A DNA stretch of 50,147 nucleotides from Nitrosopumilus sp. (GTDB taxonomy: Archaea; Thermoproteota; Nitrososphaeria; Nitrososphaerales; Nitrosopumilaceae): contig JAOUNB010000001.1 of assembly GCA_029881195.1 (NCBI GenBank), positions 1 to 50,147 on the forward strand. Direction: 5' to 3'. The translations under genes were made by a program, and so were the position numbers. This document shows, piece after piece, positions 1 to 49,858 of this stretch (positions are counted from its first letter, which is position 1; the number at the start of each line of letters is the position of its first letter). The notes beneath the pieces are model-generated. The model was not told the DNA's origin. It did no database searches and worked only from the letters and a program-made list of their open reading frames with translations.

Positions 1-127
1 GACAAGAGTTTCCACAAGATTTTGTCGATGACTCTACAGAATCGACAAGAGTTTCCACAAGATTTTGTCGATGACTCTACAGAATCGACAAGAGTTTCCA
101 CAAGATTTTGTCGATGACTCTACAGAA
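1..127. repeat. Perfect 43-bp tandem repeat, about 2.95 copies visible (may continue left of the window)
   Basis: GACAAGAGTTTCCACAAGATTTTGTCGATGACTCTACAGAATC at 1-43 and 44-86, partial at 87-127; no spacers; internal inverted repeat ATCGACAA...TTGTCGAT. Confidence 0.95.
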
Positions 128-155
128 GTTAAATTCAAAAACTTTTCAAATAATT

Positions 156-1397
156 CTACTGCAAAGTTTGAATTTTTGAAAAAACCTTGTCGTAGATACC
201 GACTGTTTTTCCTTTTTTTAAATTATTTTTTATATACCATAATGTGGATTTGTTGATTCCTAATCTTTTTCTTTCAGACTCATTCATACTCAATATCTTT
301 TCTCTTAATTTCAAATTATCTTCTCGATCAAGAGTCATTGTTGGAATGTTAGTTTCAAGTTCTTTCTTTTTATCAGAAATGAAATTAGATAATTGCTGTA
401 GATTGTCTTGAAGTATAATCTGATATGAATAATTCTTTTGATTTTTATAATTATATCTAGCATTAAAGTTTGAATTTATTTTTTCAATTAACATCTTAGC
501 AACATTTTCACCTAATCTGGTATGGTAATTTTCTGTAATAATAAAATCAGATTTCTTGATCTTCTTTTCTTCTAATAATTGAATTACAGAAACATCAATT
601 ATCCATCTAAATAATTCCTGAATATCATATACTAATGGTGTTCTACTCTGATTAACCTCATGCAGAAATCCGATGGAATAATCCAATCCTACTGAATTAA
701 TTGCCTTTCTGATTTCAGATTCCAAAATAGCATAGCCATAATTCAATAAAGCATTAATCTCATCTGAAGCATTATAGTTTCTTGAATTTGTCTTGTTCTT
801 TCTTCCCGTGAAATTAAACTCTGGATTTAGTTGATTGAATATTGCAGTAAGATTCTCCAAATAAATCCCTGCAATTCTTCCCTCGTATGTCATCAGTTGC
901 TTGATAGATTTGGAAATGTCTTGATTCTCACTGTTTTTCATGATTTTTAACAAAAACAAGTCTTCTTTTTCCACAGATTTTCTAATGTCGACTATGTCTA
1001 TGGATTCATAAAATTCAGATAATTCTTCAAGCAAATTGAGTGACTGTTTTACCTTGACCTGTACAATGTTCAAGGCAATCTCAAATCTCATTTGAGAATC
1101 AAGGTATTTTTGATATTGTTTTATTCGCAATTTGCCTGATTTTGGCTGCTCAGGCATTACATTTGCCAATATCTGACCATTCCAATTCAATAATGTCAAA
1201 TTGATGTTGTGCTTTGAGAGCCACCGCATTGCCTCAAACGTGATGTTGCCAGTATGACCGTCTATGATTATCCCATCATAGGTAATTTTATGAGGGTAAA
1301 ATTCATCTTTTTTGCCCTCTATCTTGTTGTATACAGTTAGTTTTCTTTTTTCCACATAAATTGACGTTCCAAAACCCGAAATTAACAGTGAATTCAT
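156..1397 (-). CDS. cas1: Casposase (Cas1 family integrase) with C-terminal HTH
   Basis: Cas1 motifs YEGRIA, NALLNYGYAIL, GFLH, LVYDIQE (catalytic E/H/acidic residues intact); C-terminal tail LGINKSTLW. Confidence 0.93.
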   Translation of the reverse strand: MNSLLISGFGTSIYVEKRKLTVYNKIEGKKDEFYPHKITYDGIIIDGHTGNITFEAMRWLSKHNINLTLLNWNGQILANVMPEQPKSGKLRIKQYQKYLDSQMRFEIALNIVQVKVKQSLNLLEELSEFYESIDIVDIRKSVEKEDLFLLKIMKNSENQDISKSIKQLMTYEGRIAGIYLENLTAIFNQLNPEFNFTGRKNKTNSRNYNASDEINALLNYGYAILESEIRKAINSVGLDYSIGFLHEVNQSRTPLVYDIQELFRWIIDVSVIQLLEEKKIKKSDFIITENYHTRLGENVAKMLIEKINSNFNARYNYKNQKNYSYQIILQDNLQQLSNFISDKKKELETNIPTMTLDREDNLKLREKILSMNESERKRLGINKSTLWYIKNNLKKGKTVGIYDKVFSKIQTLQ

Positions 1398-2509
1398 TAT
1401 TCATCGTCCTCTTCTTCAGTTTCTACAGATCTTCTGACAAGTTTTCTTCGTTTAGGTGTCCTGAGAGATTTTCCTTTTTCCTTTGGTTTGGAAGCATTAT
1501 TTTCTGATTTGTAAAGTACACGTCCTGGCCATTCATCATAGGCCATTGTAAATGCCTGATTGTCATGTGGGTTTTCTAGGGCTGAAACAAGCCGCATGTC
1601 TAATCCTGCAAATCTGCCATCTTTTGCAAACACCTTCTTGAATCCTCGCGCTATTGTAGTTGGCATACGAAGTGGTATAAACGCCCTCTCCTCCAAATCC
1701 TTTAACACCATTTCAAAAACAAAATCACGAAGAATGATTGGTTCTTTTGCATATTTTTTGTATTTATTATCTAAGTCAATCATGTGCAATACCAGACTTG
1801 GAGAATAATGTAATAGAGTTACTATAACTTCATCGTCATATTTGAAAAAAGTAATGTGTCTGAAATAATGTTTGTCCATCTTGAAGTGATATTGTTTAGA
1901 ATGTGATTGCACCTCTTTGTCTTTTAAAAATAATTTATAAGATTTGTTAAGAAAGTGTGCTATGGTTTTTTTATTTAAAAATGATTCAGTGTATTCGGTG
2001 TTGTACCAATACCTTGCAATGTCGATTGGTTTTTCAAAGTTTGATAATGTATCCAAATAATTCATTTCTGAACCGATAGGTAAATGGTATGGAAATTTCA
2101 ACTCTTTTGTTTTTAGTTTTTTTTGTAATCTCTTTGGAACCTTAACTTTAACCGAATCAAAATCTATAAACTTTGCATTTTGTATTTCAACTTTTCTCAA
2201 TGACAAATCATTTGTTTCCAAAAATAACACTATTTTTTTAAATGACTCTAGTGTTTTCTTCCATTTGAAATAACTTCCTATTCCACTTTTTACTCTTTTT
2301 TCTAAATAATTATCATCCACAAGCCAGCTGAGATGACCTCTTATCCCTCTTGTTTCTTTGACATTGAACACCACTTCCATGTAATCATAGATTTCTGTGG
2401 CTGATCTTTCAACATCAGATACATATCGTAAGATTGCAATTTTAACAAAATTTTTTGGAAATTTGTCACCTGGATTTCTTCTATCTGGAATGGTAATTGG
2501 TTTTTCCAC
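1397..2509 (-). CDS. Protein with N-terminal winged HTH and unknown C-terminal region
   Basis: AILRYV...SATEIYDYM...IRGHLSWLVDDNYLEK wHTH pattern; stop overlaps cas1 start (TAATG). Confidence 0.65.
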   Translation of the reverse strand: MEKPITIPDRRNPGDKFPKNFVKIAILRYVSDVERSATEIYDYMEVVFNVKETRGIRGHLSWLVDDNYLEKRVKSGIGSYFKWKKTLESFKKIVLFLETNDLSLRKVEIQNAKFIDFDSVKVKVPKRLQKKLKTKELKFPYHLPIGSEMNYLDTLSNFEKPIDIARYWYNTEYTESFLNKKTIAHFLNKSYKLFLKDKEVQSHSKQYHFKMDKHYFRHITFFKYDDEVIVTLLHYSPSLVLHMIDLDNKYKKYAKEPIILRDFVFEMVLKDLEERAFIPLRMPTTIARGFKKVFAKDGRFAGLDMRLVSALENPHDNQAFTMAYDEWPGRVLYKSENNASKPKEKGKSLRTPKRRKLVRRSVETEEEDDE

Positions 2510-2591
2510 TTTTAATTTATTGTATAGCGTGTTATTTATTGTTTAAATTTACCATGGTATATTATTATTAAATTACCAATAAATGATATAA

Positions 2592-2612
2592 ATAGGCATA
2601 ATTTATGCCTAT
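2592..2612. promoter_or_regulatory. Palindromic operator candidate in the divergent casposon promoter region
   Basis: ATAGGCATAA-T-TTATGCCTAT perfect inverted repeat between divergent operons. Confidence 0.55.
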
Positions 2613-2672
2613 AAGGTAGGTATTATTTTTAATTCATAAATCACTATGTGCTGTATTATCTATACTAATACC

Positions 2673-2855
2673 ATGGATGCAAAAAGCAAACTGAAAAAAA
2701 TCCTCAAAAAGGATTACAGTCGACTTGTGACCTTGCCCCTTTTTTGGCTAACAATAGCCGGGCTTGAAGCAGGAGACTATGTGGAAATGACCATGGGCAA
2801 AGAAAATGAGCTAGTCATTAAACCATACAAAAAAGAAGAGGAGGAAGAACAATGA
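2673..2855 (+). CDS. AbrB/MazE/SpoVT-like DNA-binding protein
   Basis: LVTLPLFWL...GLEAGDYVEM...ELVIKP swapped-hairpin pattern; ATG at 2673 preferred over 2646; ATGA overlap with next gene. Confidence 0.75.
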   Translation: MDAKSKLKKILKKDYSRLVTLPLFWLTIAGLEAGDYVEMTMGKENELVIKPYKKEEEEEQ

Positions 2856-3373
2856 AGAGAACAACTTCCTCTTCTTCTTCAAATAAAAAGAGAAGGATAA
2901 AGGATTTGGACAAGATCACTCCAAAACAAATTTCCAAATACGAAGATTCCCTTGAAGTGTTGCAATTGATGAGGAAACAGAAAATGACTCTGACAAAAGC
3001 ATCGAAGACTGTTGGCATTTCTTCAAAGACAGTCAAACGACATCTTGGTTCAGTTATTCAAAAAAAGTCAAACAGAATCATTGCAAAACAAAACGATAAC
3101 CTCCCAAGAAAAATCAGAATGTACCAAAATGGAAAAGAGATTTGGGTACAGGTTAGAGGCAATAAGAGAGCAGCAGAGATTGCAAAATATCATGGAGCAG
3201 TTGGCAGAAGACTAAATCAGGGACAAGCAGACGCAATGAAGAACTTTGAGAACAAATCTATTAAAGATTCCAAAGGAAAGATTCACAAGTTTGAGACAAA
3301 CTTGAAAAAGTTACAAGATATTGCACAAAGAAGAGAAGAGTCAGAGTTTTTCTCAATATATGGAGGCAAATAA
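2852..3373 (+). CDS. Basic HTH DNA-binding protein (casposon core)
   Basis: MTLTKASKTVGISSKTVKRHL HTH; operonic with HNH and PolB. Confidence 0.7.
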   Translation: MKRTTSSSSSNKKRRIKDLDKITPKQISKYEDSLEVLQLMRKQKMTLTKASKTVGISSKTVKRHLGSVIQKKSNRIIAKQNDNLPRKIRMYQNGKEIWVQVRGNKRAAEIAKYHGAVGRRLNQGQADAMKNFENKSIKDSKGKIHKFETNLKKLQDIAQRREESEFFSIYGGK

Positions 3374-3378
3374 GTAAA

Positions 3379-3738
3379 ATGAAAAAAACAGAATATTTTG
3401 ATGGCCTCAAACATAGAAAAGAAGAAAAAGATTGGACAGAGAAATTTTGTCTCGGGCAAGGAATCTGTTTGGCATGCGGACATGATGATCCATTTGACTT
3501 GGAGTATCATCATGTTGGTGCCCAATCAAACAGCATTGTTTTGGTATCTCTCTGTCGCAATTGCCACGGAAAATTATCAAGAAAGCAAATGAAAAGTTGG
3601 CCAGAAGGGTGGTATGATAAGGAAAAGCCTAAGAAGGCAATGACGGCATTTCTTTTGAGGGGAATGTCTGACTTGTTGATACTGGTGGGTCATAATTTGA
3701 GGTCGATTTCAGATCAGATGCTTTCAGGTGCAATATGA
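3379..3738 (+). CDS. HNH endonuclease
   Basis: CLAC...EYHH...LCRNCH zinc-binding HNH signature. Confidence 0.85.
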   Translation: MKKTEYFDGLKHRKEEKDWTEKFCLGQGICLACGHDDPFDLEYHHVGAQSNSIVLVSLCRNCHGKLSRKQMKSWPEGWYDKEKPKKAMTAFLLRGMSDLLILVGHNLRSISDQMLSGAI

Positions 3739-6496
3739 CATGACTGAGAAGGAAATCGCCGCCATCCGTGCCTATACAGTTCCAGTCTTGGAGGGCAAAA
3801 AGAGGCCTGCCCGTACTAACTTTGCAAATAATTCGTCATTTGAGAGAGTTTTGGTGTTTGATACGGAAACTAGAACTGACCTGTACCAGAACATGACATT
3901 TGGTTACTTTGCTGTTTATAATAATACCCGACTGGATGTGTCTGGAATTTTTTATGATCCTGTCATAGTAACTACAAAAGAACAAGAGATTCTAGAAAAA
4001 TATTCTGCTCAGAATAATATTGAACTTTACACTCTTGACGAGTTCAGAAAAGTGTTTCTTACCGAAGTGTTTGACTTGCAAACTCTGTGTGTCGGATTTA
4101 ATCTCCCCTTTGACATCACAAGAATTGCGTTAAGGGCAACTGAAGGCAAACTTGCAAATCAAGGTGGATTCTCAATGGTATTATCTGAGGAGAAACACTA
4201 TCCTAGATTAATCATAAATCACATATCATCTACACTGTCTTTTATAAATTGGGGAAGCACAGTTGATGCTCAGAAACAATACAAGTTAAAAAATAATGAG
4301 AATTACTTTAGAGGAAATTTTCTTGATCTTAGAATGTCAGTACATGCATTGACAGATAAAAAACATACGCTGGAATCTGCATGCAAGGCATACAAAACAG
4401 AATACCAAAAACAAAAAACAACCGAATATGGAAAGGTAACGCCAGAGCACATAGAGTACTGTATTGCAGATGTCAATGCAACATATTCTCTTTACAAAAA
4501 TGTAAAAGATGAATTTGAAACTTTCAAACTAAACATTCCAATCACAAAGGCATACACTCCTGCATCAATTGGAAAGGAGTTTCTAAAACAGATGGGAATG
4601 AAGTCATTTAAGGAAAAGAATCCAGAGTTCTCAGATGAAGTAATCGGAAACACGATGACCGGTTATTTTGGTGGAAGAACTGAATGTAAAATCAGAAAGA
4701 CTCCCACCAAGGTTGACTTGCTTGACTTTCTTAGCATGTATCCTACAGTTTGCACATTGCAAGATCTTTGGAAGTTTGTAATTGCCGAAAGTATTGATTA
4801 CAAGGATGCAACAGATGAAATTAGAAATTTTGTAGATGACTTCACTTTAGAAGACCTTCAGAACAAAGACAACTGGAAGCAATTTCAGGCCATAGTTCAG
4901 GTGATGCCAGAAGATGACGTATTACCTCTCAGGGCCCAATACGGAGACAGACACGCCTGGAATATCGGAATTTCTTCAGTAACATCCAAGATTCCTCTCT
5001 GGTACAGCCTGGCAGACATTATAGCCTCAAAACTATACACTGGAAGGACTCCAAAGATTCTCAAGGTGCTAAGATTTGTTGCAGGTCCTCCGCAAAAAGG
5101 TCTGAAGGAAATTGACATTCATGGCATCAAGATAGACCCATACTCACAGGATTTGTTCAAGGAACTTATTCAGTACAGAAAGCAGATACAGGAAAAACGT
5201 AACAGATTTGACAAAGACGATTCAGAATACAAATACCATGACAGAAAACAGCAGGTAGTCAAGATCATAACAAATGCAATCAGCTATGGGATATTTGTAG
5301 AGATTACCACACTAGACAGAAATCAAATACCTGTTGATGTGCATGGTCTTGTAAATTTCAAACAAAAGAAAGACAAGATTGAAAAGCCAGGTTTCATGTT
5401 CAATCCGATAATTGCAGTATCTATAACCTCTGCATCAAGATTGTTGCTTGCAGCAACTGAAGTGTTATTGGCAAGACACGGTGTTACACATGCATATTGT
5501 GATACAGATTCTATGGCAATTCCCCCACAATATACAAAAGAAGTACAGGACTTCTTTGCAAATTTGAACCCTTATGATTTTGATGCAGATATTTTCAAGC
5601 TTGAAAAATCAAATGTCTGGTTCTATGGAATATCTGCAAAAAGATACTGTCTGTATACAATAGATGAAAAGACAGGAGATGTAATCATTGATGAAGAAAA
5701 ATATTCCGCGCATGGATTGGGACATTTGTTAGACCCGTTATCAAACTATGATGACAAAAAACAAGTTGCTTGGCATATTCAAATCTGGAAAGACATACTT
5801 GATCTAGATTACAAAAAAATAACAATTGAGAAACTATATGAAAAATATGATAACAAGTATGCAATTCAAAAACTTGGCATATCGACACCAACGGTTCTAA
5901 ACCGAATCAAAGATTTCAATGAGGGAAAGGATTACCATTCTCAGATAAAACCATCCAACTTTTGTATTGTAGGATTTAGCAACATGGCGGATGAAGAGAC
6001 GGGGGAGCAAATCAAACCATTAGCACCATTTCAAAAATTTGTCAAGGATGCTGTGTTTGATGATTTTATTGATTACAATACCAAAAACAGTAAAAAACTG
6101 AGAGGAAAAGAATACTGGAAGTCGTTTTGGGACACGTTTGATGAGTATCTCAGACATCCTGAATCAAAATTTGATGGAGATGTCGGAGTTCTAGAGAGAA
6201 AACATGTGGTTGTAAGTGATATCAAACACATTGGAAAAGAAAGTGATGTTCTCAACGAGCCGTTTGGATTGGATGAGTTCAGCTATGAATTCTATGATGA
6301 CCCTGAAAGAGTAGATAGAGAGTTTAAAGAAAACATGGATAAAATTTTGGATTTGGAACCTAAGGATGTCATAAAATTTGGAATTAACAGAACAACCCTC
6401 TGGAATGTGAAAGAGAGAATCAAGAATCAAGAAATTGAAAAAATATCTGATAAAATCAAAATTAAATTAATTTCATTGTTAAAGTTAAGTGATTGA
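3728..6496 (+). CDS. polB: Family B DNA polymerase (casposon type) with 3'-5' exonuclease and C-terminal HTH
   Basis: Exo motifs DTET, NLPFD, YCIAD; polymerase motifs DFLSMYP, KIITNAISYG, YCDTDS, KRY; start may be ATG 3740. Confidence 0.95.
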   Translation: MQYDMTEKEIAAIRAYTVPVLEGKKRPARTNFANNSSFERVLVFDTETRTDLYQNMTFGYFAVYNNTRLDVSGIFYDPVIVTTKEQEILEKYSAQNNIELYTLDEFRKVFLTEVFDLQTLCVGFNLPFDITRIALRATEGKLANQGGFSMVLSEEKHYPRLIINHISSTLSFINWGSTVDAQKQYKLKNNENYFRGNFLDLRMSVHALTDKKHTLESACKAYKTEYQKQKTTEYGKVTPEHIEYCIADVNATYSLYKNVKDEFETFKLNIPITKAYTPASIGKEFLKQMGMKSFKEKNPEFSDEVIGNTMTGYFGGRTECKIRKTPTKVDLLDFLSMYPTVCTLQDLWKFVIAESIDYKDATDEIRNFVDDFTLEDLQNKDNWKQFQAIVQVMPEDDVLPLRAQYGDRHAWNIGISSVTSKIPLWYSLADIIASKLYTGRTPKILKVLRFVAGPPQKGLKEIDIHGIKIDPYSQDLFKELIQYRKQIQEKRNRFDKDDSEYKYHDRKQQVVKIITNAISYGIFVEITTLDRNQIPVDVHGLVNFKQKKDKIEKPGFMFNPIIAVSITSASRLLLAATEVLLARHGVTHAYCDTDSMAIPPQYTKEVQDFFANLNPYDFDADIFKLEKSNVWFYGISAKRYCLYTIDEKTGDVIIDEEKYSAHGLGHLLDPLSNYDDKKQVAWHIQIWKDILDLDYKKITIEKLYEKYDNKYAIQKLGISTPTVLNRIKDFNEGKDYHSQIKPSNFCIVGFSNMADEETGEQIKPLAPFQKFVKDAVFDDFIDYNTKNSKKLRGKEYWKSFWDTFDEYLRHPESKFDGDVGVLERKHVVVSDIKHIGKESDVLNEPFGLDEFSYEFYDDPERVDREFKENMDKILDLEPKDVIKFGINRTTLWNVKERIKNQEIEKISDKIKIKLISLLKLSD

Positions 6497-6633
6497 TGTT
6501 ATGCTCTCGAAGAGTATTGTCTAATTAGTTTTGATTCCTTCACATTAGGTTCGAATCGGATGGGATTCACCTATCAACTTGGGTATAATTTTGGGCGCAT
6601 CTATTGAATTGATCTAATTTTATGAAATTACAT

Positions 6634-8904
6634 TCATCTGGATCTTAATAAAATGTCTTGTTGTTTTTTGTACTTGTAATATTTCCATATTACGGGAAGT
6701 GTAATTAATGGAATTATCCACACGGATGTCTCAGTAATTGTTTTTTCCACAAGTTCTAGGTTATTCAAGATGTCTGGCTCAATTTTTAGTGTGGTCCATG
6801 GATTATTAAACGAAACAGGTTTTGATGAATCATCTGGAATTGGGTTTACAATTGCAGTAAATTCGGAAGGATTCTGGTTTGACTCTTCCTCCTCCAATGA
6901 TTGAGAATTCTTTTGTTTTGTAATTTCATTTGACTGTTTAATTTTTTCAACAGGCAATATGGGATTGATAATTAAACTAGGGAAATCAAATACTGAGATA
7001 TGATCATTCCATACTTCAGATACATAAAGTAAATCATCTTCAAAGATCAAAAATGCAGGATATTTTACTTGTTCATTTAAAATAGTCCCTAATGGATTGC
7101 CATTGATGTCAAATACAAAGACACGATCATTATTAACACCTGCAACATAAAGCAAATTCTCATAAAACGACAGATGAACTACCGAACCCTCTAACAATCC
7201 TTCTCCGATGGTTCTCACAAAATTACCCTCCGTATCAAACACCGAGATTCTACTGTCTGAATCCATGGAAAGAGATCCATTTTTTGGAATAGATTCCATC
7301 ACATAGAGTAAATCATTGTGAATCTTTACAAAATAAGGAAATGAACCTATCTGGCCTTCTCCGATGGTTCTCACAAAATTACCCTCCGTATCAAACACCG
7401 AGACTTTGTGCTTTCCGATACTTGCAAGATATACCATCTCATCGTAAATTATTAAATGAGAATCTACTCCTACGTGTCCTTCTCCGATGGTTCTCACGAA
7501 GCTCCCATCAGGATTGAATACTGATATGTTGTACTTGTCGTTATTGTCACGACCTGACACATAAAGTAAATTATCATGAAAAACCATATGGTCAGCATCA
7601 GATATACGTCCATTCCCAATCTCGTTCACAAGTAATCCGTTTTCATTAATAACAGATATCTTGCCGTTTCCATCACGCATAGATTCCATCACATACAGAT
7701 CATCATTGTGAAAAGTAAAATGAAATGGTGAAGTTCTAATTGCTTCCCAAATATTTTTTACAAATTTACCCTCAACATCAAACACTGATATTTTTGAGTC
7801 AATACTATATTGATGTCCTGCGACATAGAGCAAGTCCTTATGAAAAGTAAAAATAGTAACATCGTCAAGATGGCCTTCTCCGATGGTTCTCACAAAATTA
7901 CCTTGCTCATCAAGTACGGTGATTGTAGATTTGTATTGTTCTGCTACGTAGAGCATGTCATTGTTAAAAACAAAACTACTGTATACTCCGAGATGTCCCT
8001 CTCCAATGGTTCTCACAAAATTACCTTGCTCATCAAATACTGTGATTATACTGTCTGAATCCATGGAAAGCCATCCGTCTTCTTTAATTGTTTCAATTAT
8101 GTATAGATGATCATTATGAAACATCATTGAACCTACAGTTGATATTAGTCCCTCTCCAATGGTTCTCACAAGGTTACCTTGCTCATCAAATACCCATATG
8201 TTTTGATTATTTTCAACATAGAGTAAATCATTGTGAAAAATAAAAGAATAAGATGGATTAGATAAATGTCCCTCTCCAATGGTTCTCACAAAATTACCTT
8301 GCTCATCAAGTACGGTGATTGTAGATTTGTATTGTTCTGCTACGTAGAGTAAATCATTGTGAATCTTTACAAAATAAGGAAATGAGTCTATCTGGCCTTC
8401 TCCGATGGTTCTCACAAAATCTCCATCATGATTAAATACAAGAATATGATCATTCCATAATTCAATTACATAGAGCAAATCATTGTGAAAAATAAAATAA
8501 GATGAAAGATTATATCCCTCTCCAATGGTTCTCACAAGGTTACCTTGTTCATCAAATACCAATATGTTTTGATTATTCTCAACATAGAGCATGTCATTAT
8601 GAAAAGTAAAAATATCAGCATTGTTAAGATATCCTTCTCCAATGGTTCTCACAAGGTTACCTTGCTCATCGAATACTGCAATTTTTGGAAAACTCTTTCC
8701 AGACTCTAGGATGTAGAGCAAATCATTGTTAAAAACGACCTGCCTAGGATTATAGATATCGTAGTCAATAGAATGTGGATGTTTTAGATCTTTTTCCTCC
8801 TTATCATCTTGATTATTTCTTATCTCAATATCTTCAAAACCTAAAACATCTTGTGAACCAAAAAAAAGAATTATTACAAAAACGAAAAATATAATTTGAT
8901 TCAT
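6634..8904 (-). CDS. Membrane-anchored NHL-like beta-propeller surface protein (14 repeats)
   Basis: N-terminal signal peptide; about 40-aa repeats FHNDLLYV...VFDEQGNFVRTIGEG; C-terminal hydrophobic segment plus basic tail. Confidence 0.85.
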   Translation of the reverse strand: MNQIIFFVFVIILFFGSQDVLGFEDIEIRNNQDDKEEKDLKHPHSIDYDIYNPRQVVFNNDLLYILESGKSFPKIAVFDEQGNLVRTIGEGYLNNADIFTFHNDMLYVENNQNILVFDEQGNLVRTIGEGYNLSSYFIFHNDLLYVIELWNDHILVFNHDGDFVRTIGEGQIDSFPYFVKIHNDLLYVAEQYKSTITVLDEQGNFVRTIGEGHLSNPSYSFIFHNDLLYVENNQNIWVFDEQGNLVRTIGEGLISTVGSMMFHNDHLYIIETIKEDGWLSMDSDSIITVFDEQGNFVRTIGEGHLGVYSSFVFNNDMLYVAEQYKSTITVLDEQGNFVRTIGEGHLDDVTIFTFHKDLLYVAGHQYSIDSKISVFDVEGKFVKNIWEAIRTSPFHFTFHNDDLYVMESMRDGNGKISVINENGLLVNEIGNGRISDADHMVFHDNLLYVSGRDNNDKYNISVFNPDGSFVRTIGEGHVGVDSHLIIYDEMVYLASIGKHKVSVFDTEGNFVRTIGEGQIGSFPYFVKIHNDLLYVMESIPKNGSLSMDSDSRISVFDTEGNFVRTIGEGLLEGSVVHLSFYENLLYVAGVNNDRVFVFDINGNPLGTILNEQVKYPAFLIFEDDLLYVSEVWNDHISVFDFPSLIINPILPVEKIKQSNEITKQKNSQSLEEEESNQNPSEFTAIVNPIPDDSSKPVSFNNPWTTLKIEPDILNNLELVEKTITETSVWIIPLITLPVIWKYYKYKKQQDILLRSR

Positions 8905-8943
8905 ATATGTAACATGTAAAAATACTATTTAAGATTTAACGAA

Positions 8944-9360
8944 TCATTTAGATTTTGTAATAAGATCCGGCACAATACTTTTTTTCTTTTGTTTAGACTT
9001 TCTTGGTAATGAAAAGCCATTTTTCTTAAGAACTTCCAATACGTCTGGATCCGTGGTGGCTTTCATGACATGTTCACAATCTGATCTGTTGCATTCTTTA
9101 CAATGAATACTTTGACCGTTTTCTCTAATCACCAAATCCAAATGTGTGTTGGATTGTTTATTTCTGAGAACTATGTGATAGCCCTGTTTTTGTATTTCAT
9201 CTAGTTTGTACCTTACAATGCTATTGACAAATTGTGTCACATTAGTAAATCCACGCTCCTTTGCGTTGTCTGTTCTCACATATTCTGCTATTTCTTCGAT
9301 TAATGTTTGTGGCATTCGGACATTTCCCCACTGTGTCATTGTATTCATATATAGTAGCAC
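8944..9360 (-). CDS. Ribbon-helix-helix regulator with C-terminal zinc-binding motif
   Basis: WGNVRMPQTLIEEIAEYV...VTQFVNSIVRYKL RHH pattern; CKECNRSDCEH; true start probably a downstream ATG. Confidence 0.7.
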   Translation of the reverse strand: MLLYMNTMTQWGNVRMPQTLIEEIAEYVRTDNAKERGFTNVTQFVNSIVRYKLDEIQKQGYHIVLRNKQSNTHLDLVIRENGQSIHCKECNRSDCEHVMKATTDPDVLEVLKKNGFSLPRKSKQKKKSIVPDLITKSK

Positions 9361-9444
9361 ATGTGTAACAGATAAATCTTTAGATTGTATTTATGTAACA
9401 TAAATGTAGCAATATTTATCTATCACATATTACATATATGTAAC

Positions 9445-10728
9445 ATGTTTGGTTTTATATCAAAAAATAAAAAATCAAAACATCCAAAAAAAAATGATTC
9501 ATTTTTTGAGATGGAAACAACAAAACAAGTATCAAACAAAAACTTGTACAGTATAGCATCAGTCTATAAAGATTCAAAAGCATTACATCATCAAGAAAAA
9601 ATCAAGAAAATACGACAAGATAAACCAATATCGCCTACTTGCATTCAGGTAGATTTGGAGGCATTTTGCAATGATAATTGTAGTTTTTGCACCACCCGAA
9701 AAGAAAATGGTTACAATAATGAGATGCTAAAACTATTACAAATTAATGGTAAAAAAGAGAGAGAAAATCTTGATGAACATAGGCCCATTGGTATTCGCAG
9801 TAAAATATCACAACTGGATTCTACAATGGCATATTCTTTACCTGAAATGATGGTAAAAGCCCACATTCCAACAATTGAGTTGACTGGTGGCGGCGAACCC
9901 ACATTATGGCCTGCATTTGATACTCTTATACAAAATTTAGCAAAAAAAAATATTGAAATTGGTATTATTACAAATGGGTCAAACATATCAAAATTTAGGG
10001 CAAAACTGGTGGCAAGAAACTGCACTTGGATTAGGTTTTCTATGGATGCGTCAAACCAAGATTTACATAAAAAAATACACAGAACTCCAAACTATGATTT
10101 TGACAAAAGAATCAATTCAATAAAAAATATAATTAAATCTAGAAATAAAAGAATTGTAACAGGAATATCATTTGTGATTACCCCTCTAAACGTATTGGAT
10201 ATTGAAGAGTCTTGTAAATTTTACAAGAGAATTGGGGTAGACTATATTCGATTCACGTGGATTTATGACAAGACAGGCAATGGGGGGTTTTCAAATGATG
10301 AAATTAATTATATGAAAAAATTGCTTTCAAAATGCAAGGGAAAGTATGACGGTGAAAGTTTTGAAGTAATATATGATAATTACCGAGTTGAAATGTATTC
10401 TCGTCCAAACAATGATTTTGTAAAATGCCACATGCAGAAATTTGTGTGGAGTATAGGAGCTAATGGCATGGTATACCCATGCTGCATTCAAAAATGCAAT
10501 TCAAGTTTTGAGATGGGAAACATACAAGAAAAAACACTCCAACAAATCGTAGAGGATCAATTTACAATTCAAAAAATGAATGATTTGGATCCTTTAAATT
10601 GTAATCCATGTTGGTTACGAGAGAAAAATAAAATGATTGATAGAGTTGTCAGTGCAGATAATAACACGGACACGTCACTTGTATCAAATTATGACATCAG
10701 GAAACCACTTCATGTGAACTTTGTATAA
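9445..10728 (+). CDS. Radical SAM protein with SPASM/twitch-like domain
   Basis: CNDNCSFC, GGGEP, C-terminal C...G.VYPCC...CNPC; ATG at 9445 chosen over TTG 9385. Confidence 0.88.
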   Translation: MFGFISKNKKSKHPKKNDSFFEMETTKQVSNKNLYSIASVYKDSKALHHQEKIKKIRQDKPISPTCIQVDLEAFCNDNCSFCTTRKENGYNNEMLKLLQINGKKERENLDEHRPIGIRSKISQLDSTMAYSLPEMMVKAHIPTIELTGGGEPTLWPAFDTLIQNLAKKNIEIGIITNGSNISKFRAKLVARNCTWIRFSMDASNQDLHKKIHRTPNYDFDKRINSIKNIIKSRNKRIVTGISFVITPLNVLDIEESCKFYKRIGVDYIRFTWIYDKTGNGGFSNDEINYMKKLLSKCKGKYDGESFEVIYDNYRVEMYSRPNNDFVKCHMQKFVWSIGANGMVYPCCIQKCNSSFEMGNIQEKTLQQIVEDQFTIQKMNDLDPLNCNPCWLREKNKMIDRVVSADNNTDTSLVSNYDIRKPLHVNFV

Positions 10729-10729
10729 A

Positions 10730-11533
10730 ATGTTTGTTGTCAGAAAATACCATGGGGTAATTCTTGTTTTCATTTTTAGTGTATTTTTTGGTACGGTAAA
10801 TGCTAATGCAGAAAATCCTGCAACAGATAATGGTTTAGAATTGTGGGATTTTGATATCAAGGAACTTGAAATTTCTTACAATGAAAATTGGTTTTATGGA
10901 GATACTGCAACAATAAAACTTTTGATCATCAACGAATCTAACAGAGTTGCATCATCATATATTGACATCAATTTATTCTCAGATAATGGACGAGTAGTTG
11001 CAAGCAATTCTGAACTTGACATCTATTTTCTTAAGGACATGTCACCAGGGGAGACCATTACTAGACAGATAACCATATCTGATTTTGACTTATCTCAGTT
11101 TAGTGCTCTAAATGTCAACATAACTTCACCTTCACAAGCCCACATTTTTGATTCTAAACTTGTTCATCTGGATGAATTCAGACCTGAAAAAGTAAACCAT
11201 CCTTTTTTTGATATTGGGATTATTATTGGAATAACTTCTCTCATTATGACTATAATTGGAGTGATGGTGAGAAATTCTAATTTAGAATCTTTCCTTCCGG
11301 TGATTTTTGTTATTCCTGTATTTTTTATTGCGGGTCATATTTTTGGCATACCCCAATTGGTGTCATCTTTATTTTTTGAGAGTTTAGGACTCTCATTTTA
11401 CTGGTTAGCTCAAGAGATGGCTTTTTTTGGGATAATTCTAGGTATTGGATTTGCATTGTGGTTACACATCCAATTAGTTAGAAAGTTAGAAAGAAAATTA
11501 ACACTTGGTAGAGGTGTAAAAATATCACTCTGA
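10730..11533 (+). CDS. Membrane protein with signal peptide, extracellular beta-rich domain and about 3 C-terminal TM helices
   Basis: Hydrophobic N-terminus ending ANA-E; three hydrophobic C-terminal stretches; ATG 2 nt after the radical SAM stop. Confidence 0.65.
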   Translation: MFVVRKYHGVILVFIFSVFFGTVNANAENPATDNGLELWDFDIKELEISYNENWFYGDTATIKLLIINESNRVASSYIDINLFSDNGRVVASNSELDIYFLKDMSPGETITRQITISDFDLSQFSALNVNITSPSQAHIFDSKLVHLDEFRPEKVNHPFFDIGIIIGITSLIMTIIGVMVRNSNLESFLPVIFVIPVFFIAGHIFGIPQLVSSLFFESLGLSFYWLAQEMAFFGIILGIGFALWLHIQLVRKLERKLTLGRGVKISL

Positions 11534-11617
11534 GGAAATATAATTTGTGGAATGAGAAAAACATTATTTTATCTCGAAAACAAAAAACAACAAAGAATTG
11601 TATTTTAAAAAAATTGG

Positions 11618-12652
11618 TTGAGGAATATAGAAAAAATTCACAAGCTGACTATGAAGCAATTACAAATATTACAATACAGAGGTATCAACTTGGATAAACG
11701 TAGTAAAAGAATGAATGGATTTATCGTACTGATATTTTTTCTAGTATCTCTTTTGATTGATGTGATCCTTTCAATTATTAATGAAGGCAAAATAACTATT
11801 CTTTTTCTTTTATTGTTTGTTGTAGTAGCTGGTGGCACATATTTGTGGAGATTGATTCTACATGTAATATATAAAATCAAATCTGAAAAGAAATCCGTAT
11901 CTTATGAGATATGTGTTAAAGGTGTAGACTTACTGAGCAGACATAACTATTCTGGGGCCATATCTGAATTTGATAAAGCGATTGCAAAAGATCCAAACTG
12001 TTACGAAGCCTTTGCCGATAAAGGAGTTGCGTTATCTAAACTAAACAGGCATGAAGAAGCTATATCTGAATTTGATAAAGCGATTGCAATTAAGCCTGAT
12101 CATGTAGAATCTATCTATAACAAAGGTTTTGTGCTATCTAAACTAAAAAAATACAAGGAATCTATACCTGAATTTGATAAAGCGATTGCAATTAAGCCTA
12201 AACACTATTACGCTGTCATTAACAAAGGAGTTGCGTTATCTAAACTAAACAGGCATGAAGAAGCTATATCTGAATTTGATAAAGCGATTGCAATTAAGCC
12301 TAAGAATAAGGATGCTATTTTTAACAAAGGGCTTGCCTTGTACTACGCCAAGAAATATGAAGATGCAATAAGAGTTTTTGACTTAACTATGAAGATTAAT
12401 CCAAATTTTTCTGGTTCATTTTATAGAAAAGGAACTGCACTATCTAAACTAAACAGGCATGAAGAAGCTGTATCTGAATTTGATAAAGCGATTGCAATAA
12501 CTTATGACTTCCCTGAGGCTTGGTATGATCGTGGCTTATCTTTGAACAGATTGAAACAACATGACAAAGCAAAACATAGTTTTGGACAAGCATTAAGATT
12601 ACGACCCGATAATTCTGATTACAAAAAAGCCGTTGATGACTTTGAAAAATAA
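11618..12652 (+). CDS. Membrane-anchored tetratricopeptide repeat protein
   Basis: Two TM helices then about seven 34-aa repeats KGVALSKLNRHEEAISEFDKAIAIKP; start uncertain. Confidence 0.88.
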   Translation: MRNIEKIHKLTMKQLQILQYRGINLDKRSKRMNGFIVLIFFLVSLLIDVILSIINEGKITILFLLLFVVVAGGTYLWRLILHVIYKIKSEKKSVSYEICVKGVDLLSRHNYSGAISEFDKAIAKDPNCYEAFADKGVALSKLNRHEEAISEFDKAIAIKPDHVESIYNKGFVLSKLKKYKESIPEFDKAIAIKPKHYYAVINKGVALSKLNRHEEAISEFDKAIAIKPKNKDAIFNKGLALYYAKKYEDAIRVFDLTMKINPNFSGSFYRKGTALSKLNRHEEAVSEFDKAIAITYDFPEAWYDRGLSLNRLKQHDKAKHSFGQALRLRPDNSDYKKAVDDFEK

Positions 12653-12951
12653 CTAATCTTGAACACACAATTAAGAACTTCATAATCTTGTATAGGATTA
12701 TGAAAAAACAGTAAAATATCATGTTTAGTCAAAACTTTTCCCAGTATTGAGTATCGTAACTTTCAGATAGTATTTTGTCTCAATTTTGGGTTCAAGTCGT
12801 TAAAGGTTTGAATCCATATTGAGATTAACTTGAGATCAAATGATTATTTTAGATAAAAATTTCTTTTAAATTATTTCTTAGGTGTCATTATCAAGATCTT
12901 GTTCAGGTGCTCTTTCGGGCACGTTAATTTTCGCCGGCCTGTCCTAACCCC

Positions 12952-12984
12952 GTACATGTTGTGCTCCCAGTCAAATTTGAACCT
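12952..12984 (-). other. Putative casposon target site: tRNA 3'-end-like sequence, predicted TSD 12952-12966
   Basis: Minus strand AGGTTCAAAT TTGAC TGGGAGC A CAACATGTAC|GGGG: T-loop motif, acceptor-like 3' strand, then element start. Confidence 0.6.
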
Positions 12985-13067: not shown

Positions 13068-14081
13068 TTACATATTATCTGTAATTTGTTTCGTAAATTC
13101 AGAAGTAGACATATTTCCACCAATATCTTTAGTTTTAACACCTAATTTCACTAAATTGAAAATTGTTGATTCTAATTTTTGCCCAACCTCAATGCATTTT
13201 GAATCACTGTGTTTATTTCCCAACCAATCCAACATCATTTTAATGGATAGTAAAAATGATGAAGGATTTGCAATATTTTTTCCCGCAATGTCAAATGCAG
13301 CTCCATGAACAGGTTCAAACAATGCAAAATCATCACCAATATTTGCAGCTGGTGCCATTCCCAATCCCCCAACAACCTGAGATGACTCATCAGATAGAAT
13401 ATCTCCAAATAAATTAGTGGTAACTATGACATCGAATTTTTCAGGTTGGCGAATCAAATTCATAGCACATGCATCTACATACATTTCTTCAAATGTAATG
13501 TTAGGATAATCTTTTGATATTTCAGTGCATGATTTTGCAAATAACCCGTCAGTGATTCGCATAACATTTGATTTATGAACACATGTTACCTTTTTCACAG
13601 CATCTCGTTGTGTGGCAATTTCAAATGCATATTTTGCAATACGTTTTGATGCATTTTCTGAAATTATTCTCAATGCAACAGCAGAATTTCCTAAACTGAA
13701 TTCCTTCCCGGTATAAAGATCTTCAGTATTTTCTCGAACAATCACCATATCAACATCATCACGTAATGCAGGCATGTGTGGGTATGATTTTGCAGGTCTG
13801 ATATTTGCATAAAGATCAAGCATTCGTCTTAACACTACAATCACATCAGCTGCACTCTCACCTACAGGTGCTTTCATGCACGCGTCAGATTGTTTGATTT
13901 TATTGATTGTCTCATAGGGTAGCGCATTGCCAGTTTCTGCAAGGGCCTTATCTCCAGCAGATAATTTTGTGATTTCAAATTTTAAGTCAAATTTATCATT
14001 AATTGTGTTTAATACTGAAATTGCTGATTCGGCTAATTCAGGTCCAATCCCATCACCAGTAATCAACGAGATTTTATACAT
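13068..14081 (-). CDS. leuB: 3-isopropylmalate dehydrogenase (isocitrate/isopropylmalate DH family)
   Basis: GDGIGPE, RENTED, NLFGDILSD, EPVHG motifs; downstream of leuA. Confidence 0.88.
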   Translation of the reverse strand: MYKISLITGDGIGPELAESAISVLNTINDKFDLKFEITKLSAGDKALAETGNALPYETINKIKQSDACMKAPVGESAADVIVVLRRMLDLYANIRPAKSYPHMPALRDDVDMVIVRENTEDLYTGKEFSLGNSAVALRIISENASKRIAKYAFEIATQRDAVKKVTCVHKSNVMRITDGLFAKSCTEISKDYPNITFEEMYVDACAMNLIRQPEKFDVIVTTNLFGDILSDESSQVVGGLGMAPAANIGDDFALFEPVHGAAFDIAGKNIANPSSFLLSIKMMLDWLGNKHSDSKCIEVGQKLESTIFNLVKLGVKTKDIGGNMSTSEFTKQITDNM

Positions 14082-18442: not shown

Positions 18443-19354
18443 TTAGTTTTTAGAAGCGTTTGGGTTTTTAGGTTTCTTTTGATTTGGGTTGAATGATTTC
18501 TTTGGGGAGTTGGGTTTCTTTTGATTTGGGTTGAATGATTTCTTTGGGGAGTTGGGTTTCTTTTTAGGTTCCTCGCTTACTAATTTTTTATAGAGTTTGA
18601 ATGCTTGATCAACATTCTGATTTGCATGGACAATTGCTCTAACAGCTCTAATCATAGAGACTGGATGTTCTGATTGCCAGATGTTTCTTCCCATGTCAAC
18701 ACCAACTGCACCGCCCTTGATTGCGTTGTATGTTAATTGCAATGCATCGCGCTCGGGGATTTTTTTTCCACCTGCAACAATAATTGGTACAGGACATGAT
18801 TGAACGACTTTTTCAAAATTATCACAATAGTAAGTTTTTACAATATGCGCACCTTGTTCAGCAGCTATTCTACATGCCAAAGAAAGATATCTAGCATCTT
18901 TACCTAGTTCTTTTCCAACTGCAGTTACTGCTAAAACTGGAAGTCCATATTTTTCAGCTTTGCCAACTAATTTTCCAAGATTAACAATAGTTTGATATTC
19001 ATATTTTGAACCAACAAATATGGACATTGCAAGGGCACTAGCATTTAATCTGATTGCGTCTTCAATGGATACTGTGATATCTTCCTGTGAAAGATCCTCA
19101 CCAATAATGCTTGAGCCTCCAGAGACTCGCAACACCATAGGAGTATCAGTCGTTGTTGAAACACATGCCCTTTGGATTCCTCTTGTAACCATTAAAGAGT
19201 CACAGTATTTCAAGAGTGGTGCAATTACTTTTTTTGGATCCTCTAGTTTTTCAGTAGGACCAAGAAAGTACCCATGATCTACAGCCAACATTAATGCCCG
19301 GTTATTTTGCGGTTTTATAATACTAGAAATTCTATTTTTTAATCCCCAATCCAA
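18443..19354 (-). CDS. DhnA/LsrF-family class I aldolase/thiolase
   Basis: LAVDHG, GAHIVKTYY, IVAGGKK, DMGRNIWQ. Confidence 0.85.
   Translation of the reverse strand: MDWGLKNRISSIIKPQNNRALMLAVDHGYFLGPTEKLEDPKKVIAPLLKYCDSLMVTRGIQRACVSTTTDTPMVLRVSGGSSIIGEDLSQEDITVSIEDAIRLNASALAMSIFVGSKYEYQTIVNLGKLVGKAEKYGLPVLAVTAVGKELGKDARYLSLACRIAAEQGAHIVKTYYCDNFEKVVQSCPVPIIVAGGKKIPERDALQLTYNAIKGGAVGVDMGRNIWQSEHPVSMIRAVRAIVHANQNVDQAFKLYKKLVSEEPKKKPNSPKKSFNPNQKKPNSPKKSFNPNQKKPKNPNASKN
18471..18564. repeat. 42-bp tandem repeat (2.2 copies) encoding KKPNSPKKSFNPNQ
   Basis: Two exact copies at 18471-18512 and 18513-18554. Confidence 0.9.
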
Positions 19355-34724: not shown

Positions 34725-35849
34725 CTATTTTATTTTTTTATTCAATTCTGTGATGAATTTTTTTATTTTGGGTTTTGGAATTACGGCTCCACATGCTTTG
34801 TCATGGCCTCCGCCAGAACCGCCTAAGCTTGTTGCCAGAATATTAACAATTTTTCCCAAATGCACTTTACAATCTTTGGAACCACGAACAGACACGGCAT
34901 AAATTCCATGATCAATACGTTCTTTGTATGCAACACCAACATCTTTTCCAGATAATCCCATTACAAAATTGACAGCACCACTAGCACCAGCATCAAGGAT
35001 TTCCATATAACCAAGATTTTTCATGGTCTTCATTCCTTGTTTAACTTTAGCAATCATTTGAGATAATTTTTCAACCTGAATTTGTGCAAATTCAAACGTA
35101 TTAGGAATTGCATGTGGGAATTTAGATTCTGCCAACTCCTCAACCAAATACAATAAATAATCAGGTTCTTTTTGATGTCCTACAATATTGTAGGTAAGAA
35201 CGGTTGCACTAATCAATGCAAATTGTCTGTCATAGATTTGTAGTAACTTTGAACCAATTGGTCTGGTTTCCATATAGTCAGTAATTGCAGCACATGCTGC
35301 AACAAATGATGCATGATCATTGAGTTTTGATTTGAATGCAGTATAAGTTAGAACTGCGGTACATTCATTGATGTCGTGGATTACCTTTACTTTAATTTTG
35401 TTTAGTGCCTTTATAACATCAGGATCAATATCATGATGATCAATATAAGTAACTGAGACTTTGTTTTTTCTCAGAGTGGTCATTATATCAATAAATTCAT
35501 CTTGGGTTTTTTTGCTTAGGCCTAAATCACAGATAAATAATGATTTTAATTTTTCATCTAAAACTACTTGATTTAATGCTTCCATTTGACCAGGATAGTC
35601 AACTAGAATTGCATCTCCTCCAAAAGCTTGTCTAATCAATGCAGCAGAACTAATTCCATCACAATCTTCTTTGTGAGAAATGCAAATTATTTTTGTTCGT
35701 TGGGCTTTGACTGTTTTTTTTGTTAGTGTTTTAGGTTTTTTGGTTGCAGGTTTTTTGGTTGCAGGTTTTTTGGTTGCAGGTTTTTTGGTTGCAGGTTTTT
35801 TGGTTGCAGGTTTTTTGGTTGCAGGTTTTTTGGTTGAAGATACTGCCAA
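34725..35849 (-). CDS. DHH/DHHA1 family phosphoesterase with Lys-rich N-terminal repeat
   Basis: DCDG, DLG, DHH, GGGH motifs. Confidence 0.88.
   Translation of the reverse strand: MAVSSTKKPATKKPATKKPATKKPATKKPATKKPATKKPKTLTKKTVKAQRTKIICISHKEDCDGISSAALIRQAFGGDAILVDYPGQMEALNQVVLDEKLKSLFICDLGLSKKTQDEFIDIMTTLRKNKVSVTYIDHHDIDPDVIKALNKIKVKVIHDINECTAVLTYTAFKSKLNDHASFVAACAAITDYMETRPIGSKLLQIYDRQFALISATVLTYNIVGHQKEPDYLLYLVEELAESKFPHAIPNTFEFAQIQVEKLSQMIAKVKQGMKTMKNLGYMEILDAGASGAVNFVMGLSGKDVGVAYKERIDHGIYAVSVRGSKDCKVHLGKIVNILATSLGGSGGGHDKACGAVIPKPKIKKFITELNKKIK
35733..35836. repeat. 15-bp tandem repeat (6.9 copies) encoding TKKPA
   Basis: AGGTTTTTTGGTTGC repeated exactly. Confidence 0.95.
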
Positions 35850-39732: not shown

Positions 39733-40305
39733 ATGGCAAGTATAGATACAGCCGCAATTGGATTTTCTATCGCAATTGTAGCTATCGGTGTAGGATTTGC
39801 ATTCTACATGAGTGGAGTTCAAGATGCTGGTCCAGTTTCAACTTCCCCAACTATGGCAGCTGAAAAAGCTATGGCAGCTGAAAAAGCTATGGCAGCTGAA
39901 AAAGCTATGGCAGCTGAAAAAGCTATGGCAGCTGAAAAAGCTATGGCAGCTGAAAAAGCTATGGCAGCTGAAAAAGCTATGGCAGCTGAAAAGAAGGTAG
40001 GGCCAACAACACACACAGTGGATATTCCAGTAGGTACGTCAGTACCAGGATGTGAAGAATCTAATGAATGTTATTTACCAGCAGACATTACAATTAATGC
40101 TGGAGATACAGTGAATTGGATTAACATAGACACAGCAGCACACACAGTAACTGGTGGAAGTCCAGCAGATGGTCCATCAGGTGTATTCGATAGTAGTCTA
40201 GTCATGGCAAGTGCAGAATATGCATTTACGTTTAATGATGCAGGCAACTATGATTATTTCTGTATGGTTCATCCTTGGATGGTCGGTAGTGTTACAGTGA
40301 ACTAA
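39733..40305 (+). CDS. Membrane-anchored blue (type 1) copper protein
   Basis: N-terminal TM; AHTVT and YFCMVHPWM copper ligands. Confidence 0.92.
   Translation: MASIDTAAIGFSIAIVAIGVGFAFYMSGVQDAGPVSTSPTMAAEKAMAAEKAMAAEKAMAAEKAMAAEKAMAAEKAMAAEKAMAAEKKVGPTTHTVDIPVGTSVPGCEESNECYLPADITINAGDTVNWINIDTAAHTVTGGSPADGPSGVFDSSLVMASAEYAFTFNDAGNYDYFCMVHPWMVGSVTVN
39851..39992. repeat. 18-bp tandem repeat (7.9 copies) encoding MAAEKA
   Basis: CTATGGCAGCTGAAAAAG repeated exactly. Confidence 0.95.
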
Positions 40306-47018: not shown

Positions 47019-47048
47019 AGGTTCAAATTTGACTGGGAGCACAACATG
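47019..47048 (+). repeat. Second, inverted copy of the tRNA-3'-like casposon flank
   Basis: AGGTTCAAATTTGACTGGGAGCACAACATG is the exact reverse complement of 12955-12984. Confidence 0.9.
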
Positions 47049-47186
47049 CATGGGATTATAGTTAGTGGCTATAATTTAGCATCCATGTGGAACTCAATTG
47101 TTGAATTTTTTTAGATCCGAAATGTTGTCTCAATTATACAGTACTAAGATACACTTTTGACGATAAATTTGGGTGTAAGTAGATGA

Positions 47187-47696
47187 TTATTTCAAAACGT
47201 TGTAATGCAAATCAACTAATTGTTCATATTTTACAGTTTTAACAAGTTCAAGTTTTGTCTCATTTTCTATGTTTTTGAAGAGAGGTATTCCTTTGCCTAA
47301 AAGAATCGGAATCACAGATATGATTATCTCATCTACAGCCCCTTGATTAAGAAAAGATGCAATAATTTGTGTTCCTCCAACCAACCAAATGTTTTCTCCT
47401 GCTCCAGGAAAACCATCTTTTACAAATTTTTCAACATCAGACACAAATTCAGTATTTTCATCTTTATTTTGAGTAGAACTTCTAGTAAAAACAAATGATT
47501 TTTTATCTTTGTATGGATATTCTCCAAAAGTTAGTACTTGGTCATATGTGGTTTTACCCATAATCACGGTATCTATTGAGTTGTAAAATGCATCATATCC
47601 AGATTCAGCAGTTTCTGGCAGCCAATCAATTCCACCATTTTCTCTCGCTATGTATCCATCCAAGCTTGATGCGATGTACAATAGAACTTTTGTCAC
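47187..47696 (-). CDS. Dihydrofolate reductase/RibD C-terminal family protein
   Basis: IASSLDGYIA, IMGKTTY, IWLVGG, PILLGKGIPLF. Confidence 0.9.
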   Translation of the reverse strand: MTKVLLYIASSLDGYIARENGGIDWLPETAESGYDAFYNSIDTVIMGKTTYDQVLTFGEYPYKDKKSFVFTRSSTQNKDENTEFVSDVEKFVKDGFPGAGENIWLVGGTQIIASFLNQGAVDEIIISVIPILLGKGIPLFKNIENETKLELVKTVKYEQLVDLHYNVLK

Positions 47697-47765
47697 AAGA
47701 GTTGTAATTATTTCAGAGTTATAATGTTAGATTCAACTCAAGATTTTACATTTTCATGGATTGGT

Positions 47766-48212: not shown

Positions 48213-48356
48213 TGTATTGAAATATGATGTTTGTAATATATCTCCATAAGACAGCGTCTTAAGATAAGATCTAATTTGGCCTTTGCGAGATTTTACACTA
48301 TTTTTAATTCAAATGAATATTGAGTTAATTATTGATTTTACAATAGACAGAAATTC

Positions 48357-49313: not shown

Positions 49314-49453
49314 TTACTATCAATAATTCAAATGGGCTGGAATATCTATTCATTGTGTATAATACTATTATTTACAATTCTTGAGACAATACACGAAAAA
49401 ATTTGAATTTAGAGTTTTTTAGTTGAGGCTATGATTGTGCACTAATCTAAGAA

Positions 49454-49645: not shown

Positions 49646-49858
49646 GTAAATTCAATTCTATTTTTTATGATTTTCAATCATACAAATATTCAATCTTGTC
49701 ATATTCATCCTTCTGATATGAGTTGTTCTGATCGTAATCCTTTTTATAAGATTTACAAAAATATCTACAAAACTATGAAACTTTCGAAAAGTTTGCTGAA
49801 TTGATAGTTATTACTCCGAATTGATAAAAAAATAAAGTATTGAGAAAACAATATCAAA

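Follow-up and report, generated by a model that had tools for sequence, protein, structure and literature searches.

The window analysed here is a stretch of 50,147 nucleotides of Nitrosopumilus sp. DNA, corresponding to the complete contig C31 of an assembly of 143 contigs (G000 denotes the genome of the window, other G numbers denote congener genomes and L numbers loci of relatives). It begins inside a casposon. This element belongs to casposon family 2 and all its genes are unbroken; its right end lies in a 31-bp tRNA-Glu-like sequence without a tRNA body, which we will call a landing pad. The genes named in a preliminary description of this DNA, i.e. a solo Cas1 with a helix-turn-helix (HTH) tail, a 922-amino-acid polymerase, HNH and HTH genes and about 6 kb of cargo, were all found as open frames where it had placed them.

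Gene content and family assignment

The Cas1 casposase (156..1397, minus strand, 413 amino acids; PF01867, E 9.5e-60) has kept residues E172, H246 and D258/E261, and its C-terminal HTH aligns with the tail of the M. mazei casposase. Neither cas2 nor a repeat-spacer array was present beside it among the open reading frames (ORFs) and repeats of the window, so it is a solo Cas1 and not part of a CRISPR-Cas adaptation module, the alternative against which the preliminary description had set its reading. The adjacent gene (1397..2509, minus strand) encodes a 370-amino-acid protein of unassigned function with a possible, weakly indicated N-terminal winged helix. This protein had no match in Pfam, NCBIfam, PADLOC or PHROG, and its Atlas comparison with ArsR-like models gave template modelling (TM) scores below 0.3; a 44% identical homolog occupies the same position in G120. 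On the plus strand follow an AbrB/MazE-like small regulator (2646..2855; PF04014, E 5e-5, under the cut-off), a conserved casposon HTH protein with weak HTH matches, homologs of which adjoin HNH and PolB genes in relatives (2852..3373), an HNH endonuclease (3379..3738; conserved CxxC..HH..C..CH, no Pfam match, PHROG HNH families at E 1e-4) and a family B DNA polymerase (PolB) of the family 2 casposon type (3728..6496). The HNH gene and one HTH gene are thus present, and a second, HEAT-bearing HTH gene was not identified, the 370-amino-acid ORF being a weak candidate. The exonuclease and polymerase motifs of PolB are intact and were invariant or almost so in an alignment of 82 sequences. Its predicted model (predicted local distance difference test score, pLDDT, 90.6) has the family B fold; Foldseek ranked phi29 and cellular enzymes alike against this model, which does not separate protein-primed from RNA-primed polymerases.

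The assignment to family 2, already made in the preliminary description, was upheld. The best PDB match of Cas1 was 6OPM, the M. mazei casposase (residues 2-405, E 2.4e-71), the next Cas1 following at 1e-26. Across 98% of its length, PolB shares 43% identity with a polymerase of Methanosarcina sp. 2.H.A.1B.4, a strain with casposons of family 2 (PMC4779613). Homologous HTH tails on Cas1 and PolB are a mark of the same family (PMC4046053), and in the window the two tails are homologous (33% identity over 57 amino acids, E 9e-10). Family 1 traits (compact Cas1 without HTH, protein-primed PolB, aEF-2 target) do not describe the window element, and no integrase gene, as in tyrosine-integrase elements, lies beside the repeat. 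A quick tree built from 41 Cas1 proteins separated the clade of the window (28 rows, support 99) from CRISPR Cas1 and from family 1 Cas1, the latter recognised by aEF-2 and PF03175 neighbours; long branches meet at the family split in this tree, the set of which was assembled without published family 2 references. Family 2 had been regarded as the less typical type for this host, a view with which the counts do not agree: at a threshold of E<=1e-40, family 2 Cas1 was present in 21/151 congeners and family 1 Cas1 in 22/151, and one family 2 casposon of Thaumarchaeota has been known since 2019 (PMC6563490). Window-type PolB was present in 18/151 congeners.

The window Cas1 is about 80% identical to that of elements whose PolB is about 31% identical, and 57% identical to that of elements with PolB at 57-58%. 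Modules have thus been exchanged among elements. Relics of cas1 of the window's family were also present on G000 contigs C64, C50, C118 and C34.

The cargo of the element extends over 6634-12652. It comprises a beta-propeller repeat protein (6634..8904, minus strand) and a 138-amino-acid protein without family match (8944..9360, minus strand), followed on the plus strand by a radical S-adenosylmethionine (SAM)/SPASM protein (9385..10728), a membrane protein predicted from sequence and without family match (10721..11533) and a tetratricopeptide repeat (TPR) protein (11618..12652). The beta-propeller, radical SAM/SPASM and TPR assignments are family matches.

At the opposite side, base 1 is a contig end within a perfect 43-bp tandem repeat (1..127, three copies, clipped by the contig end) that lies in the element 3' of cas1, and not the left end of the element. 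The assembly does not reach the left end: no further copy of the right terminal inverted repeat was found anywhere in G000, and the usual neighbour of leuB sits on contig C126, with no element end in the first 480 bp of that contig. The 43-bp repeat is a candidate cis-acting repeat. An identical unit occurs seven times behind an 81%-identical cas1 in L232, and different tandem repeats hold the same post-cas1 position in L200 and L237. A CRISPR array was rejected as an explanation, spacers being absent, and so was an assembly artefact, given the identical unit in L232; the predicted folding of the repeat was no stronger than that of shuffled sequences. Short tandem repeats with varying units were observed 3' of polB (L206, L208, L211, L213 and L228) or 3' of cas1 (L200, L232 and L237), and such repeats beside the core module are candidate origin or protein-binding arrays. 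Further cargo probably lies beyond base 1, because in L200, the closest relative, cas1 and the tandem repeats are followed by a type I restriction-modification system.

Landing pads and stacked cargo units

The right terminal inverted repeat (12874..12951, minus strand) starts with GGGG at 12951; a core of about 55 bp is conserved and about 78 bp are common to the window and L200. Read on the minus strand, the junction consists of a 17-bp leader (12982-12966), a 14-bp target duplication unit (12965-12952) and the GGGG terminal repeat. The second copy of the 14-mer is unassembled here, the duplication being seen at complete units of relatives. In the leader and the opening bases of the 14-mer, the T-loop and acceptor stem from the 3' end of tRNA-Glu(CTC) are reproduced, with the T-stem shifted to a partial palindrome. 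However, no tRNA or Rfam RNA was detected at the junction, the whole window is devoid of tRNA genes, and the true tRNA-Glu(CTC) of G000 is unoccupied, so the tRNA targeting that the preliminary description names as typical of family 2, a usual though not universal trait, does not hold for the window copy. The pad, at 12952-12982, lies just beyond the element as previously delimited. A host leuB-type gene (13068..14081, minus strand) follows, with the pad about 85 bp past its stop codon.

The pad has the geometry of the minimal A. boonei target, which consists of an 18-bp T-loop segment and the duplicated segment, the motif TCAAATC lying 8 bp upstream (PMC5137440, PMC6614799). In other congeners, tRNA-Glu was followed by an element end at 9/10 inspected loci, and the tRNA-targeting Cas1 proteins clustered together (support 81, quick tree). 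Because tRNA-Glu is occupied by element ends in these congeners, a tRNA-Glu junction is the likely ancestor of the pad. The two kinds of target do not exclude each other, as both pads and targeted tRNAs occur in G082, G115 and G146. No convincing HTH residues diagnostic of pad-targeting Cas1 were found.

Pads are dispersed. G000 contains 11 of them and one more truncated at a contig end, and G143 at least 16. The pad pattern was present in 21/151 congeners (reversed-pattern control, 0/151), and the other 130 genomes had no match even with one mismatch allowed. Altogether, 69 pads were collected (68 without one duplicate), 65 of which are followed by an element end; these elements also include another terminal repeat type, the GGGGATATAG-type ends. 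The upstream flanks of 59 pads fell into 38 unrelated groups, and the core genes adjoining pads include leuB, uvrB, purP, purC and pdxS (names assigned by reading translations). A bias of pads towards gaps between convergent genes was not evident. The check for an empty site downstream of leuB, suggested in the preliminary description, gave a negative answer, since 330 nt inspected by eye contained no pad, empty or filled, in 19/19 relatives; a gap beside an ATP-binding cassette (ABC) permease gene contained a pad in 2/20 relatives. Pad-bearing hosts do not form a clade (approximately unbiased test, p-AU 0.0004, 4/20 rows). Tail-to-head junctions were observed in 14/20 pad-bearing versus 3/130 other relatives, and a close Cas1 in 13/20 versus 7/130; kin are not independent in this comparison, and no statistical test is claimed for it.

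A second pad lies in the window itself (47021..47092, plus strand), upstream of uvrB, with the leader at 47021-47037, the 14-mer at 47038-47051 and a different element end from 47052; its cargo runs past the contig end. The cargo within 47021-50147 contains RibD-like, SRPBCC and GNAT proteins. It also includes a paralog, 74% identical, of the host gene normally found there, the true ortholog of which sits on contig C2. In G143, another dispersed repeat, similar to the 3' end of tRNA-Gly, was noticed about 50 bp upstream of five pads (G143:C1, 514553, 558433, 1753023, 2238646 and 2333066). The 3' end of leuB is an insertion hot spot in L024 and at other loci; in L024, a direct repeat of the gene end flanks a small insert.

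The pads stand at the head of tandem stacks of cargo units. In 1.38 Mb of regions picked around cas1, polB or pad matches, a sample that gives no genome-wide rate, we found 21 complete units of 0.6-25 kb with element ends and matching 14-mers, i.e. the 14-bp duplications that flank complete units in relatives. Seven units encode full Cas1 and PolB, four Cas1 only, two PolB fragments and eight neither, so that 14/21 lack the full core. Two of 23 automatically called units had been dropped as an unrelated repeat in G014; this repeat has GGGG-starting inverted ends (G014:C1, 712644, 733792, 1565124 and 1582296), and one copy adjoins a broken casposon polB. In G032, five complete units follow one another over 83 kb with one 14-mer between all of them. 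In this array (G032:C1:1415200-1497960) and in G087 (G087:C1:1710544-1754906), the first 14-mer is opposite in direction to the inner ones, as expected for an inversion between terminal repeats. G143 carries ends almost identical to those of the window, yet its cas1 is reduced to a broken remnant and PolB matches are absent. Two enzyme-less units in G006 (G006:C4:168644-201704; L151 and L152) contain two genes for TATA-binding protein (TBP) and at least four for transcription factor B (TFB), together with genes for a cyclase and a thermosome subunit. Paralogs of basal transcription factors may be spread by casposon ends.

Proposed spread of the pads and possible mobility of the element

Given a family 2 casposon with its right end in a tRNA-less pad, we consider it reasonably probable that its Cas1 inserts this element and other cargo units at the leader side of such pads, with a 14-bp duplication each. 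By analogy with A. boonei biochemistry, Cas1 would read the TCAAAT motif at -15 to -9, together with the opening bases of the duplicated segment, and would join the CCCC-3' ends of the element; PolB would copy the element. Enzyme-less units flanked by terminal repeats would be mobilised in trans; the newest unit would lie nearest the leader and distal units would decay. The least certain step concerns the pads, which might be copies of one ancestral tRNA-Glu junction carried to new loci by the elements themselves, a proposal on which we are almost evenly balanced, leaning slightly towards doubt. Delivery by elements is proposed because one end type, present in G143, G168 and L200, holds a pad 42 bp inward of its terminus. 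Matched 14-mers flank one such unit of G143, at 2333097-2342065, with a pad within its end, and in the same genome an internal pad at 1770234 is already used. An exact 22-mer is common to 11/68 pads. Leader scores above 17 bits were reached at 11 sites in G000 versus one in each of three shuffles. Furthermore, pads carry 7.4 bits in the distal 9 bases of the duplicated unit (on average 7.1 and at least 4.6 in size-matched subsamples), compared with 3.75 bits at 10 true tRNA-Glu sites, and the conservation of these bases, ignored by the A. boonei enzyme, favours copying.

Several observations weigh against this picture. Pad-carrying outer ends were found upstream of 5/58 pads and were missing from 53/58, including the leuB pad. 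At the ABC-permease locus, two pads lie 11-13 bp from the stop codon, leaving no room for a pad-carrying end. Pads were no more similar within than between genomes (p 0.4-0.8), and there was therefore no recent burst of copying. The sharp upstream boundary of the pads is that of the recognition footprint, and selection alone could produce it. The matrix behind the leader scores was trained on pattern-found sites and is hence partly circular. As for the stacks, the units were counted in picked regions, the inverted 14-mers in G032 and G087 imply that recombination also shaped unit order, and a clean distal host junction is rarely visible in arrays.

The element was present in several sediment sequencing runs, of which three may be its source. 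In runs X1 and X2, contig depth was 26-28 for the unitig joining pad and leuB versus 7.5-9 within the element, and the same junction was also reached by ends of the other repeat type; in X1, the host-side unitig was unbranched from the pad into leuB. This suggests that the element occupies the leuB pad in part of the population only, and the contig data fit leader-side insertion there; the polymorphism comes from one look at assembled contigs, and depth is not a share of cells. Judged from such data, the window casposon has probably been mobile recently. On the other side, the assembly lacks the left end, the depth and junction picture could also arise from co-occurring strains, and no excised or circular form, for which the preliminary description had proposed to check, was seen. 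The unbroken catalytic motifs and the junction polymorphism among contigs favour its view that the element may be active or recent.

The pads might also never have been copied, but represent sites that happen, rarely, to match an extended recognition sequence, gathered over a long time by a casposase of high specificity and spread between species via island recombination, with the 14-mer perhaps overwritten by the element's own copy. Under such a scenario, one would understand why the pad is as long as the minimal in vitro target (PMC5137440), why pads diverge in a star-like manner without within-genome similarity and why different species carry them at the same host loci; moreover, the M. mazei element was suggested to carry over its own target site (PMC10359463). 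However, about 25 bits in the leader and 16 bits in the 14-mer (partly circular) far exceed what a 1.6-Mb genome offers, 130/151 genomes lack any match, and chance-born sites are expected to be marginal whereas 11/68 pads share one exact 22-mer, which makes a chance origin clearly unlikely. It is improbable that the pads are right-hand attachment scars of tRNA-Glu-targeting tyrosine-integrase elements, later colonised by casposons: PF00589 matches do not lie beside pads in G168 and G143, the complete G032 has none, some pads are located 11-13 bp from the stop of a core gene, and viral contigs, which could also have served as a vehicle for pads, contained neither a pad nor a close Cas1. Still, such elements and casposons use common tRNA targets in M. 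mazei (PMC4779613), the leuB 3' end is duplicated around the insert in L024, and T-loop-like motifs occur upstream of pads 13 times versus 1.5 expected. The partial palindrome, matched at no fewer than 4/7 positions in 51/69 pads versus 1-2 positions at three tRNA sites, would suit a host protein-binding site co-opted by casposons; nevertheless, pads were found only in genomes with casposon traces, are almost always occupied and are not bound to one gene class, and their hosts form no clade, leaving this origin very improbable.

As for the window copy, it could be a stable passenger that is no longer mobile, the gap in depth and the alternative junctions stemming from older differences between co-occurring strains or species. 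We regard this as rather unlikely, though to be taken seriously. Assembled contigs are the sole data and their depths sum other organisms, the cas1 relics on four other G000 contigs indicate that decay is common, and G143 retains a broken cas1 remnant despite its many pads. Against it stand the intact catalytic motifs, a 98%-identical Cas1 in the protein collection and the unbranched host-side unitig in X1.

Relation to known systems

The core gene set of the window element, with C-terminal HTH on both Cas1 and PolB and with HNH and HTH genes, resembles that of AciBoo-C1 of A. boonei, Met2HA1B4-C1/C2 and MetMaz-C1 (PMC4046053, PMC4779613). GGGG-ended inverted repeats, the 14-bp duplication and the T-loop leader geometry are likewise common to family 2 casposons of A. 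boonei and Methanosarcina (PMC4046053, PMC4779613, PMC5137440), as are tandem pairs, some intergenic targets and solo ends (PMC4779613). For Methanosarcina, these features and a possible carry-over of the target have been published (PMC4779613, PMC10359463), and the leader geometry had led to a prediction of tandem arrays (PMC5137440). Published intergenic targets have only about 4 bp in common, in contrast to the 31-bp tRNA-derived pad at up to 16 loci per genome observed here. Unlike in those casposons, stacks here reach five complete units and more than 80 kb, many units are without enzymes and some ends carry a pad. NitNCS1-C1 of Nitrosotalea okcheonensis, the first thaumarchaeal family 2 casposon, shares the core gene set and the host group, but is set apart by its published description as a single element in tRNA-Pro with a fragmented PolB (PMC6563490). 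NitAR1-C1, a family 1 casposon, shares the genus Nitrosopumilus, the solo Cas1 and a reported tandem insertion; family 1 differs by a shorter Cas1 without HTH, a PolB of protein-primed type, the aEF-2 target and its separate clade.

CRISPR arrays provide a working analogy, as they grow by repeated insertion at a leader and have a duplicated unit between inserts; here, however, there are no cas2 and no spacers, and the inserts measure 0.6-25 kb and have their own inverted ends. In integrons, gene cassettes are gathered by an integrase in trans, and the stacks accumulate cassettes similarly, but without a tyrosine integrase or attC; stacking at one site is also reminiscent of Tn7 islands. It is likely that the elements and their enzyme-less relatives stack gene cargo in series, as a CRISPR array stacks spacers. 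A literature search, with most subscription papers and supplements outside its scope, returned no description of multi-locus tRNA-less pads or natural enzyme-less cargo stacks. While family 2 itself is known, and its occurrence in Nitrosopumilus alone would be a modest extension of the 2019 report, portable landing pads and cargo stacks are a novel trait of the family 2 casposons studied here.

The scenario leading from casposons to CRISPR requires a leader-plus-repeat target freed from a housekeeping gene, with repeated polarised insertion of DNA lacking an integrase. Pads and stacks would be a natural, testable example of this step. They would also be a so far unrecognised means by which genomic islands of marine ammonia oxidisers are built, and the system offers a one-protein integrase, a 31-bp portable target and cargo of up to about 25 kb. 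Much more tentatively, and in our opinion somewhat doubtfully, a casposon lineage in Nitrosopumilaceae might have freed its target from the tRNA gene, seed its own leader-plus-repeat pads over the chromosome and use them as polarised Cas1-fed cassette arrays. It would then be a living casposon-CRISPR intermediate to which these archaea owe much of their flexible genome, additional TBP and TFB genes among it.

Finally, perfect in-frame tandem repeats were observed in three host genes of the window, at 18471-18564, 35733-35836 and 39851-39992, with units of 42, 15 and 18 bp.

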